A DNA stretch of 33,952 nt, from contig NZ_CALJRY010000298.1 of the NCBI RefSeq assembly GCF_937976295.1, forward strand, positions 1 through 33,952, given 5' to 3'. Origin of the DNA: an uncultured Rothia sp. Its GTDB lineage: Bacteria > Actinomycetota > Actinomycetes > Actinomycetales > Micrococcaceae. A program made the translations under genes and the position numbers. Under the pieces are notes generated by a model. That model was not told the DNA's origin. It made no database searches and saw only the letters and a list, made by a program, of their open reading frames with translations. This document shows, one piece after another, positions 4,667 to 10,260 of the stretch. The first letter of the stretch is position 1, and the number at the start of each line of letters is the position of its first letter.

Positions 4667-4747
4667 GTGTTTGTCCGCTAGAAGCCTATGCTTGCTAGAA
4701 ACCTCGACTTGCTAGAACCTCGGCTTCCGGGCGTTTTCTAGCCGCCG

Positions 4748-7479: not shown

Positions 7480-7533
7480 GTTTTATGCCTGTGCGCGGCG
7501 GGCGCGGTTTTATGCCTGAGCACGGCGGGCGCG
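7480..7533 (-). repeat. 27-bp in-frame tandem duplication of the MerR gene 3' end
   Basis: GTTTTATGCCTGTGCGCGGCGGGCGCG (7480-7506) vs GTTTTATGCCTGAGCACGGCGGGCGCG (7507-7533). Confidence 0.85.
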
Positions 7534-8157
7534 GCGGGCGGCGAGTTCGTCGCCTTCGAAGTTCTCGTGCATTTCTTCGCCGGGCTGACCGTTGAGGTTC
7601 ATTTCGATTTCTCGCCAGACGCGGCCAATCGCGATACCGAAGACGCCCTGACCAGCCTGAACCAGGTCGATAACCTCGCTCGGGGAGGTGCATTCGTAGA
7701 CGGTGGTGCCGTCACTCATCAGGGTGATGTTCGCGAGGTCGTCAATGCCGCGGGTACGCAGATGCTCGATGGAGGTGCGGATCTGCTGCAGGGACACGCC
7801 GGTGTCGAGCAGTCGCTTCACGATCTTGAGCACGAGCACGTCGCGGAAGCTGTAGAGGCGCTGGGTACCGGAACCGGATGCGCCACGCACGGTGGGTACG
7901 ACCAGGTCGGTGCGTGCCCAGTAGTCGAGCTGACGGTAGGTGATGCCGGCTGCCTTGCAGGCGACGGCGCCACGGTAGCCGAGGTTTTCCTCGACGACAG
8001 AGACAGGGTCGGTGAAGAGTACGCCCTGTTCACCGCGCGGAGGCGGTGCTACGGGGAAGAGGGTGTCAAAGCCGTCCAGGGGCTGGTCGAAGCCCTGGGG
8101 TGCCTCATGGGTACCTGCGGCCTCGCCTGCATTTTCGGCTACCTGCTGCTCTAGCAC
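7510..8157 (-). CDS. MerR-family transcriptional regulator, Rv1830-like
   Basis: GYRGAVACKAAGITYRQLDYWARTDLVVP...GSGTQRLYSFRD...LLDTGVSLQQIR and C-terminal DELAARRARR; GTG start with AAGGAGG RBS. Confidence 0.9.
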   Translation of the reverse strand: MLEQQVAENAGEAAGTHEAPQGFDQPLDGFDTLFPVAPPPRGEQGVLFTDPVSVVEENLGYRGAVACKAAGITYRQLDYWARTDLVVPTVRGASGSGTQRLYSFRDVLVLKIVKRLLDTGVSLQQIRTSIEHLRTRGIDDLANITLMSDGTTVYECTSPSEVIDLVQAGQGVFGIAIGRVWREIEMNLNGQPGEEMHENFEGDELAARRARRAQA

Positions 8158-8193
8158 GGCCCCTCCTTTTCGTTAACCCGTTTAATGCGATTC

Positions 8194-8881
8194 ACCGCGC
8201 CCTATCAAATGTGGTCGACTTCGTTCCGGTGTAGCCCCGATTTTCGGGGTGAGGTTCTAGGGCTAAGCCTTAGAATCTGCATCTATGATTCGCGTGGCTC
8301 CCTCTAGGAGGTCAGCTACGCGGTTTTCAATACTACACATTGGTTCGACTATTCGCTTCGCAGAACACGAGGTTCGTAGAACACAACTCGATAGTGCGAC
8401 CGATGCGCGATAGGCGCGGTTGTTCAATCTATTTTAACTGATAGAGGGCTCTACTTAAAATTGAACCCACCGGAGCGAATGATCTTTCCTGATTCATTCG
8501 TACCTCTTTAACGCCCCTATAGGGCCACTCCTCCCCCGCTATTGCGTTAGCTTTCCCTGGATATCCACCCCACAGGGGAGTTTAAAAAGTAAATGCGCAC
8601 GGATAGGTAGTCCGTACGCATTTACAGCTGAGTTGAGTGAATAGCCTTGGCAGGCCGGGAGCCCCCTGGTTAGAAAGCTCTTCGTGTTGGACGAAGGGGT
8701 AGAAGTTCCGAGCGTGCCAGCGTCGGCTTCGTCCAAGTCTAGAGGCCGCTACCCGCTGGTAAGGGGTAGGGACTATAGAGGGAATCACCGTGGTCAGTGG
8801 TGTTTCCCGAGGGAAATCCCCGTTTGGGGGTGCGGTAAAACCGCTGAGGTTTTACGAGCGGCAGGCTGTCCGGTAGTCTGC
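8194..8881. ncRNA. Candidate large structured RNA of unassigned family
   Basis: About 15 helices within ~690 nt, including nested long-range pairings; no credible ORF. See findings. Confidence 0.5.
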
Positions 8882-8893
8882 GTCTTCGTACGC

Positions 8894-9667
8894 CTACTCG
8901 TAGGTAGGCATCGCCGATTCGACGAGAGTTGCGTGCAGCTGCAGGCACAACTTGCGGATCTTATCGGCTCGTTCCTGCGCCTGAGCCTGGGAGGCTGCAT
9001 CGCGGCGCGATGCCAGCGGAGCCACCGCAATTTCCACAAGGGAAATTTCGCGGTCTGCCGCGGACTTGAATGCGCGCAGGTGACGGGGCTGAATGCCGTG
9101 CTGGGTCAGTTCTGCACTAACGCGGGCAATCAGCACGTCGTAATCGGTGTACTCCACATCCGAACCGTCTTCGAGCAGTCCAAAGTCAATCAGCTCGCGA
9201 ATCAGTTCGGGAGTGGTGTTAGCATATTCTGCCAGCTCACGGAGAGTGTAGGTGCGACCTTCCTGCTCGTTCGGGCCAAGGACGGTGTCTAGCACGTCTT
9301 CGCTTACGGTGGCAGGCATGGAGTTCAGTACGCGACCGGCTTCCATGTCTTCCAGGTGCTGACGGATTACCTTGAGCGGCATGTAGTGATCGCGCTGCAT
9401 GGTGAGGATGTAGCGCAGGCGCTCAATGTCCGTCTGGGAGTACTTGCGGTAGCCGGTTTCGGTACGGCTGGGGTGCACGAGACCGCGCTCCTCCAGGAAG
9501 CGAATCTTGGATGCGCTAATTCCGGGGAACTCCAGGTCGAGCTGACTAAGAACCTGACCAATGGTCCGACTCTTAACGTCACGCGGGTTACGGTCAGAGT
9601 TGCCGTTCTCCACGTCCTCTAGTTGAACCTCAGCGTTAGTGAGGTTTTCATCGATGCGTGAGGTCAT
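8894..9667 (-). CDS. MerR-family regulator, Rv1828/FtsR-like
   Basis: TIGQVLSQLDLEFPGISASKIRFLEERGLVHPSRTETGYRKYS...QRDHYMPLKVIR and GIQPRHLRAFKSAADRE. Confidence 0.9.
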   Translation of the reverse strand: MTSRIDENLTNAEVQLEDVENGNSDRNPRDVKSRTIGQVLSQLDLEFPGISASKIRFLEERGLVHPSRTETGYRKYSQTDIERLRYILTMQRDHYMPLKVIRQHLEDMEAGRVLNSMPATVSEDVLDTVLGPNEQEGRTYTLRELAEYANTTPELIRELIDFGLLEDGSDVEYTDYDVLIARVSAELTQHGIQPRHLRAFKSAADREISLVEIAVAPLASRRDAASQAQAQERADKIRKLCLQLHATLVESAMPTYE

Positions 9668-10174
9668 CTATGTCTTTCGGGTACTTGTTCAGCCGATGTC
9701 GATACGAGCCGAAATTTGAGTGAGTGGCTCGTTCCCCGGTCGGGGTCTCGCTTCGTGCCGAACATCTTTGCTTAGTGTTGAGAGTGTGATAGATAAGTTT
9801 AGTTGTTTATCACGAAATGATAAACCGCAAACCATCGAGACAATCTTATAGCCTCACAAGGCATTTTGCTATTCAGTTCACCCTTTTCAGGGGCGTTTGG
9901 AACCCAAAAATAGCCACACAACCAGACACTATTCAGTAGAGACAGTACCAATTTTAGCAAAATTCCAATACTTCTAATACACGTATCTCATATTGGACTG
10001 CTTTACGAGGAAAATTTTATCTTCTCGCGATAGTTGAAGTTTTCATCACATTTAACTTGAAAGAGGCTCCCACTAGGGGTTTAGTCATCTTTCAAGCCCT
10101 TCAGACAGCTTCAGAGACCCTCAAGATGAACCTTAAATACGTCCGTTTATTTGCGTTTGTGTGCACTTTAAATG

Positions 10175-10206
10175 AAAAACGGCGAGACCAATCGGTCTCG
10201 CCGTTT
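10175..10206 (-). terminator. Intrinsic terminator downstream of gcvH
   Basis: AAACGGCGAGACC-AATC-GGTCTCGCCGTTT with a U5 tract on the minus strand. Confidence 0.8.
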
Positions 10207-10260
10207 CACCACTACGTACCTCTTATCATCAGGGACGCCAGAGGTATAGAGTCTATCGAC

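Follow-up and report, generated by a model that had tools for sequence, protein, structure and literature searches.

Enterobacterial small RNAs (sRNAs) such as CpxQ, SroC and DapZ are derived from 3' untranslated regions (3'UTRs) and share the terminator of their parent mRNA, and the long regulatory 3'UTRs of icaR in Staphylococcus aureus and hilD in Salmonella act in cis. In Corynebacterium, 6C RNA is associated with cell morphology and with the SOS response. The MerR-family regulator FtsR is an activator of ftsZ and is conserved across Actinobacteria (PMC6683498). Little is known about how FtsR itself is controlled. Here, we analyzed a stretch of 33,952 nucleotides (nt) from an uncultured Rothia sp. 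(assembly GCF_937976295.1, contig NZ_CALJRY010000298.1, positions 1 to 33,952 of the forward strand; hereafter, the window), in which ftsR and a second MerR-family regulator gene, both on the minus strand, are separated by a gap of 736 nt (8158-8893). A preliminary description had read this gap as a candidate large structured non-coding RNA (ncRNA) on the plus strand. The reading of the gap as a 700-nt giant RNA can be set aside, and the gap is a composite. What had been missed is most likely a conserved structured RNA of ~200 nt (8582-8769) that would lie on the minus strand at the end of the ftsR transcript. In the interpretation that we prefer, and to which we give slightly better than an even chance, the composite is organized on the minus (sense) strand. 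Its only folded part under strong conservation, 8582-8769, would then likely form the 3' end of the ftsR transcript, with a predicted role as a 3'UTR-borne small RNA.

Conservation along the gap is very uneven. With diversity expressed as the mean pairwise value among 22 close species (Table 1), the core is conserved six times better than third codon positions, while the spacer evolves faster than these positions. Thus, two constrained islands (8397-8472 and 8582-8745) are split by a neutral spacer, and one functional RNA of 700 nt is thereby ruled out. The helices listed in the spacer by the preliminary description are 62-91% paired, and the spacer has a fold z of ~0 in G050 and G020. The spacer also holds a C run of variable length (up to ~25 nt in G056), and indels cluster in the parts of the gap outside the core, forming hot spots.

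The second island holds the core and an intrinsic-terminator-like hairpin; with the P1 hairpin on its other side, it forms the element. Alignment A4 comprises 23 species; G017 and G084 were omitted, as their sequences in this block match those of G052 and G054 exactly or almost so. Of the 1105 cells in A4, 98.0% are paired, compared with 24-46% with slid partners. Eight pairs change on both sides versus 3.0 +/- 1.4 after shuffling, a number reached in one of 500 shuffles, and 21 cells are changed on both sides versus 3.3 +/- 1.6, a number reached in none of 500. Moreover, the hairpins came in one and the same order, and the tract between P4 and the terminator stayed open, in all five divergent sequences that were folded independently. 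Two of the stems given in the preliminary description, 8589-8625 (15 bp) and 8687-8736 (perfect 10 bp), were found independently.

Changes within individual hairpins agree with this model. In P1, the 22 close species have nine non-Watson-Crick cells of the G-U type on the minus strand and none of that type on the plus strand, one position runs through C-G, U-G (G055) and U-A (G081), and G005 and G050 have a hairpin of 8-9 bp and unrelated sequence in its place. P2 of G020 has U-A in place of one C-G pair and a loop shortened by 20 nt. P3' was predicted independently in all five folded sequences; in G005, G050 and G020, its 5' arm lacks a U and its 3' arm a G, and its loop is the only variable spot of the block among close species. 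The loop of P4 takes up a 1-nt insertion that is carried by these three distant species. As for an intrinsic (Rho-independent) terminator, the sequence at 8582-8625 has a stem with G+C, a short loop and a U-run directly 3' of the stem. Its tail (UUUUUAA at 8588-8582; TTTTTAAACT) is found on the minus strand only, and the stem is the sole terminator-like site within 8050-9000. Five pairs of this stem have changed on both sides across lineages, and its distal part reads CGGA/UCCG, CCAAU/AUUGG or CUCAC/GUGAG depending on the lineage.

The open tract is a candidate seed or protein-binding site. A recognizable version of it is kept beside the terminator hairpin in G045 and G001, which have nothing else of the element in common. 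Two CA/CU-rich strings in the ftsR 5' leader on the minus strand, CCACUCACUCAAAU and CACACUCUCAACACUAAG (9715-9727 and 9770-9786), resemble the tract in the same sense, and CCACUCACUCAAAU sits in the loop of a GAGCC/GGCUC hairpin; they may represent a shared protein-binding motif or chance. The CA/CU-rich motif was not enriched in the window.

A coding function of the conserved block is argued against by indels of 1, 2, 3 and 20 nt between lineages, which are not all multiples of three. In agreement with the preliminary description, which had seen no credible open reading frame (ORF), no conserved ORF was found in the gap. Small ORFs running through core and terminator were rejected because their frames are broken by the 1-, 2- and 20-nt indels in G005, G050 and G020, and a 10-codon frame with an ATG at 8479 was rejected because it is missing in G005 and G050. 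As that description had also stated, no riboswitch, intron, tmRNA or RNase P was recognized: against Rfam 15, with families that include GOLLD, ROOL, HEARO, Ms1, 6S, 6C, riboswitches, introns, tmRNA and RNase P, the whole window gave no match at the gathering score, and only three chance-level matches were obtained for 8050-9000 at E<=10 (E 2-4.6; 10.6-16.6 bits versus cut-offs of 35.6-90). RF00013 (6S) and RF01066 (6C) gave no match at E<=1 genome-wide, two models that also respond poorly in an actinobacterial control.

The distribution of the element is narrow. By BLAST, the gap is present in 25 of the 71 species genomes of the genus, in 22 of them at full length with an identity of 78-100%; in G005, G050 and G020, only two blocks match, and the distance from gene to gene is still ~740-770 nt. 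The gap, measured as the distance between the ends of protein matches, is ~580 nt in G045, ~500 nt in G001 and ~150-380 nt in nine further species. Therefore, the long gap is derived and particular to one subclade. We used A4 to build a covariance model, which gave one full-length match per genome in the same 25 genomes, always downstream of ftsR, and nothing beyond these carriers in the genus, where G045 and G001 have no more than the terminator hairpin and the tract beside it; none was obtained in 144 genomes from 37 other genera of the family. Taken together, 8582-8769 appears to be an unclassified RNA element of ~200 nt at the end of ftsR that is confined to one subclade.

Table 1. Features of the gap and its flanking genes, with mean pairwise diversity where available
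Feature	Coordinates	Strand	Diversity	Basis or description
ftsR (MerR-family regulator FtsR, 257 amino acids)	8894-9667	minus		NCBIfam NF050798, 259 bits vs cut-off 150; Pfam MerR_1
Predicted distal part of the ftsR 3'UTR	8770-8893	minus	0.131 (8746-8893)	small hairpins, weak constraint; mixed wobble types
P1 hairpin	8749-8769	minus		CUACCC/GGGUAG; wobble cells, replacement hairpins
Core	8626-8745		0.025	
P2 hairpin	8687-8736	minus		perfect 10-bp stem, 30-nt loop; stem also found independently
P3' hairpin	8659-8680	minus		GAGCUUUCU / AGGGGGCUC; three U-G pairs on the minus strand, variable loop
P4 hairpin	8643-8656	minus		GGCCU/AGGCU; folds
Conserved open 17-nt tract between P4 and terminator	8626-8642	minus		AUUCACUCAACUCAGCU; unpaired in 5/5 independent folds
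Intrinsic-terminator-like hairpin	8582-8625	minus	0.055	15-bp stem 8589-8625 (7 G-C), 7-nt loop
Fast-evolving, indel-rich spacer	8473-8581	none	0.145 (8473-8507); 0.256 (8508-8581)	includes listed stems 8475-8501, 8513-8525 and 8531-8580
Ultra-conserved promoter-/operator-like block	8397-8472	none	0.006	two opposite-strand TAAAAT boxes; GC-rich motif 8400-8420
Predicted long 5' leader of the second MerR gene ("domain 1", ~265 nt)	8158-8424	minus	0.123 (interior, 8207-8396)	closing helix 8194-8206/8409-8420
Second MerR-family regulator gene (215 amino acids)	7510-8157	minus		Pfam MerR_1 match
Third codon positions (ftsR, second MerR gene, ParA-like gene)			0.149, 0.141, 0.151	

We favour the minus strand for the core. 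In all 25 rows of alignment A3, made up of 23 of the 25 carrier species plus G045 and G001, a T-rich run persists on the minus side. Core and terminator fold better on the minus strand in four of four lineages, with z-scores in G000, G005, G050 and G020 of -5.5, -4.9, -7.0 and -9.6 on the minus strand and -3.2, -3.0, -3.1 and -7.0 on the plus strand, respectively. Because ftsR transcription runs on the minus strand and meets no earlier terminator-like site, gene orientation also speaks for this strand. So do the wobble cells of P1, nine of the minus type and none of the plus type, and P3', which requires its three U-G pairs on the minus strand and loses one nucleotide from each arm at once in the distant lineage. 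A first count of wobbles gave 24 columns versus 8; because wobble counts are confounded and mixed, the strand call rests mainly on the U-run, the gene orientation and the fold z-scores.

In this model, transcription of ftsR would read through 8893-8589 and stop at the terminator hairpin. As expected for a 3'UTR-derived sRNA, the element lies in sense orientation between the ftsR stop codon (8894-8896) and the terminator, and no terminator-like site occurs earlier, before 8625. The structured end may stabilize or regulate the ftsR message; alternatively, the element might be released as an sRNA, with the open tract or the C-rich loops pairing with targets or binding a protein. Either way, the level of the element would be tied to the level of the cell-division regulator. 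In addition, the terminator and a separate promoter would uncouple ftsR from the second MerR gene.

Several observations weigh against this interpretation. Unpaired columns carry the same bias of ~2:1 (33:16) as the minority states of paired columns (11 G-U:6 A-C), which makes the argument from wobbles to strand a weak one. Five species have a plus-strand G-T at the apical pair of the terminator, and four hairpins have mostly plus-type wobbles, with plus:minus cells of 28:4 at 8252-8278, 21:7 at 8291-8322, 30:8 at 8835-8855 and 32:10 at 8861-8881, a count that is biased because these hairpins were defined by folding of the plus strand. The sole promoter-like site reported by our scan points along the plus strand, and a plus-strand hairpin of the core, CCGGG/CCUGG, is also kept in distant species as judged by eye. 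As for function, a scan for targets of the open tract at 4682 start sites of the genome gave nothing beyond the chance extreme, and by eye the distant lineage shows no conserved independent sRNA promoter upstream of P1. The 22 close species all have the same TATAGT box on the minus strand (8777-8772), for which G005, G050 and G020 have, by eye, no counterpart. Apart from the tract's own antisense, the best duplex at a start site (-27.6 kcal/mol) involves a Fic-like accessory gene and is probably due to chance. This gene (contig C199, start 1392, plus strand) is a 211-amino-acid ORF with an HPFxxGNGR-type motif, presumably Fic/Doc-like, and the 5' half of the tract is complementary to its ribosome-binding site and start codon.

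On the other side of the spacer, the promoter-like block is the most conserved part of the gap. Its TAAAAT boxes lie at 8431-8436 (minus strand) and 8456-8461 (plus strand), and the scan reported the latter as part of a sigma-70-like site, TTAACT-16-TAAAAT (8434-8461), with 0.2 such sites expected. The outer inverted repeat of the block is not kept as a helix in G005, G050 and G020 while the boxes are invariant, which fits a function at the level of DNA as a promoter or operator. G074 has a similar block upstream of the same gene, in which the minus-strand box still reads TANNNT and the plus-strand box does not; we therefore take the block for the second MerR gene's promoter, from which transcription would start near 8424. 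By eye, the block has no FtsR site of the kind given in PMC6683498.

The helices of domain 1 probably belong to the leader of this downstream gene. The first 12 nt of the predicted leader pair with 8206-8194, which would bring its 5' end to a segment that precedes the ribosome-binding site by ~25 nt, and this closing helix is present in all 25 species with five non-Watson-Crick cells that are all G-U on the minus strand. The preliminary description had considered a very long structured leader of the downstream regulator. This is plausible for 8158-8424. The interior is near-neutral and completely different between the two lineages, with other sequence in the three distant species G005, G050 and G020, and the helices of domain 1 lack significant covariation. 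Folding of the minus-strand leader in these distant species exceeds that of shuffles only weakly (z of -2.3, -1.6 and -1.5). Domain 1 also has a 16-nt tandem duplication at 8357-8384 (columns 246-283 of alignment A1; units TTCGCAGAACAC / TTCGTAGAACAC) in G000 and three relatives, and the same area has a 43-nt deletion in G051, G081 and G009. The idea that domain 1 was inserted into the loop of a short hairpin of G074 was dropped because that hairpin aligns better with the local element 8403-8420.

How unusual is the folding of the gap? Compared with 20 dinucleotide shuffles per strand, the whole gap has z-scores of -5.79 (plus) and -7.09 (minus), and it does fold far better than shuffled sequence. 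All 15 local intervals listed in the preliminary description fold to plus-strand hairpins of 4-15 pairs, and its three long-range helices are complementary. Structure is common in long non-coding stretches of this genome. As a baseline, we used the 37 longest of 88 crude intergenic stretches of the genome (450-1100 nt) and the mean z of 150-nt windows. The gap ranks 6th of the 37, with a mean z of -1.9 (plus) and -2.8 (minus) where ~-1 is typical. Thus, the gap clearly belongs to the structured upper tail of this genome and is no outlier or unique case. Among eight of the best-folding other stretches, only two contain an Rfam family (lysM-Actino and a tRNA). The stretches C385:551-1581, C385:2565-3548, C57:18793-19668, C360:4227-5165 and C138:2059-2744 fold as well or better on both strands (mean window z down to -3.9) and have no Rfam match save the tRNA on C138; those on C385 have a G+C content of 0.43-0.50 and might be a repeat array or foreign DNA. 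The lysM-Actino RNA (RF03090) lies at C157:27998-28211 (L128:599-812) and scores 252 bits versus a gathering score of 153.8.

The source genome is a draft of 2.45 Mb with a G+C content of 59%, and the closest named relatives of the genes in the window are Kocuria and Rothia species. From the NF050798 match (259 bits), the gene at 8894-9667 is a homologue of Rv1828/cg1631 and is therefore FtsR, not the Rv1830-like regulator named in the preliminary description. From its position, we take the second MerR gene to be Rv1830/cg1633-like; in the search of NCBIfam models, none reached its own cut-off for this gene. The gap had been noted to sit where a bifunctional nuclease gene usually lies. This is the case in C. 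glutamicum, in which a nuclease gene sits between the homologues of ftsR and of the second MerR gene according to PMC6683498, and it does not apply to the nearest named relatives, Rothia endophytica and a Kocuria species, whose two MerR genes are direct neighbours with no gene between them. A six-frame search of the genome for PF02577 (the BFN nuclease domain) gave no match at E<=10, and a decayed Rv1829/cg1632-type nuclease gene was therefore rejected. On its other side, ftsR has gcvH as its upstream neighbour. The usual position of garA/odhI is directly upstream of ftsR. Here, gcvH and ftsR are separated by an A+T-rich gap of 593 nt (9668-10260; G+C 0.38-0.50), in which the minus strand is without an ORF of at least 60 amino acids and a scan for the FHA domain gave no match; the three FHA matches of the genome are all on other contigs. 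The part from 9668 to 10056 has a diversity of 0.072, indicating some constraint, and a terminator-like hairpin lies 3' of gcvH at ~10205-10170. Immediately downstream of ftsR, 12 nt past its stop codon, lies the hairpin 8861-8881. In G020, the 7-nt loop (plus-strand GTCCGGT) is retained alongside two compensatory swaps of stem pairs (G-C/A-T to A-T/G-C); in G005 and G050, the hairpin is lost.

Other explanations can be weighed against a 3'UTR-borne element. It is very improbable indeed that the whole gap forms one structured ncRNA of ~700 nt comparable to GOLLD, ROOL and OLE. Nested long-range helices exist, and folding is far better than that of shuffles on both strands; however, the near-neutral spacer and the promoter-like block split the gap, a terminator lies in its middle, domain 1 is replaced in the sister lineage, the distribution is narrow, and no large-RNA family of Rfam matches. 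Moreover, in 22 species, the plus-strand structure has 10 pairs changed on both sides versus 8.7 +/- 1.8 after shuffling, with at least as many in 167 of 500 shuffles, so that covariation over the whole region is not significant. That the gap is mostly a relic is unlikely. In that case, only the ftsR terminator and the downstream promoter would function, and the other helices would be undecayed leftovers of a hairpin-rich insertion or of local duplications in the ancestor of the subclade. Consistent with this, the domain 1 interior, the spacer and 8746-8893 evolve at about the rate of third codon positions and have large indels, local duplications are visible (including those of 14 nt in domain 1), the leader and spacer of the distant lineage fold weakly better than shuffles or not at all so, other members of the genus manage with gaps of ~150-380 nt, and several long intergenic stretches of the genome fold as well or better. 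By contrast, a relic leaves the 120-nt core with its diversity of 0.025, the compensatory changes and the persistence in both lineages unexplained. Nor is the gap linked to a repeat family or a mobile element: its sequence occurs only once in the source genome, the full-length matches of the covariance model number one per genome and fall at the same locus, and searches for phage and plasmid relatives gave no match, all of which speaks against the non-autonomous element that had been considered.

Two further readings were weighed. We consider it rather unlikely that the fold is a conditional terminator or attenuator, which would sense a ligand or protein, perhaps FtsR or the second MerR protein, and gate read-through into the second MerR gene. 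In favour of this reading, a structured RNA with high conservation sits immediately 5' of an intrinsic terminator, and the genes on both sides share one strand. Moreover, the operon cg1631-cg1633 of C. glutamicum is reported to be co-transcribed (PMC6683498), and the 3' arm of P2, CUUCG, can pair with an upstream CGAAG or with a CGAAG just downstream. However, the 5' arm of the terminator, with the 3' arm left off, finds no consistent partner in any of the five sequences, 430 nt separate the terminator from the downstream start codon, with the neutral spacer and the downstream gene's own promoter-like block intervening, and no riboswitch or leader of Rfam matches. Because no antiterminator was found, a classic riboswitch platform is unlikely. 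Quite unlikely, too, is an antisense RNA on the plus strand, in which the promoters would be back to back, possibly MerR-controlled, and the plus promoter (8434-8461) would drive an RNA of ~420 nt from ~8468 to 8890, antisense to the 3' end of ftsR. The only sigma-70-like site does lie on the plus strand within the most conserved block, the hairpins 8835-8855 and 8861-8881 have mostly plus-type G-U cells, and domain 1 has a z of -5.0 on the plus strand versus -3.2 on the minus strand in this genome. The preliminary description had noted an excess of G-U on the plus strand; counted as strand-neutral isolated mismatches, this holds for domain 1 (16 G-T versus 3 A-C in the leader) and does not generalize to the whole gap (21 versus 28). 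On the other hand, the antisense RNA would start with the fastest-evolving stretch of the locus (0.145-0.256), a terminator scan of the plus strand found none, the core folds better on the minus strand in four of four lineages, the wobbles of P1 and of the closing helix are of the minus type only, the plus-strand structure lacks significant covariation, and the plus-strand -10 box is TAAAAC in G074 and G076, in which the block also occurs. Thus, we continue to prefer a 3'UTR-borne element at the end of the ftsR transcript. More speculatively, and quite improbably in our estimate, the released end of the ftsR transcript might be a lineage-specific riboregulator that acts in trans via the CACUCAACUCAG tract, while the neighbouring MerR regulator would control back-to-back promoters, one of which would make an RNA antisense to the element; the two regulators would then cross-talk via RNA and not via operon structure.

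In this subclade of an oral and respiratory commensal genus, the usual operon link between ftsR and the second MerR gene thus appears to be replaced by a terminator, a structured RNA and a separate promoter. Judged by titles and abstract openings, none of the papers listed by a full-text literature search dealt with sRNAs of the genus. Should the RNA prove real and active, it would add a new candidate regulatory RNA to the genus, and post-transcriptional control of a cell-division regulator could be approached through it. If it is no more than a 3' end that stabilizes the message, it would be an ordinary feature, and the main practical result would be that the reading as a giant RNA is set aside.

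In comparison with known systems, the promoter-like block recalls the divergent promoters of the mer type in that a MerR-family gene lies beside a near-invariant block with two opposed -10-like boxes ~20 bp apart. However, its spacer is 16 bp and not 19-20 bp, the distant species have no conserved dyad in the spacer, and the divergent partner would be non-coding. With riboswitches and attenuators, the element shares a conserved multi-hairpin fold immediately upstream of an intrinsic terminator between two genes on the same strand, but it has no antiterminator, belongs to no Rfam class, and is followed by a start codon that is 430 nt away, past the promoter-like block. Similar to 6C RNA (RF01066), it is a set of actinobacterial hairpins with a terminator and some C-rich loops; it differs from 6C RNA in size, in its ftsR context and in its narrow distribution, the defining pair of C-rich loops is not evident, and RF01066 matches neither the genome at E<=1 nor the window. 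Like the 3'UTRs of icaR and hilD, it would form a long structured 3'UTR of a transcription-factor gene with pyrimidine-rich stretches, but for pairing of the core with the start regions of ftsR and of the second MerR gene, shuffled targets do just as well, with 0.97 and 0.67 of the shuffles, respectively, at least equalling the real region. From the 3'UTR-derived sRNAs, the predicted element differs in its length of 200-310 nt, which is long for the class; its actinobacterial host is also not known to carry Hfq. Nevertheless, it resembles these sRNAs in its location on the sense strand directly after the stop codon, in its conserved hairpins, open conserved tract and intrinsic terminator, and in being conserved above the third positions of the neighbouring coding sequence.

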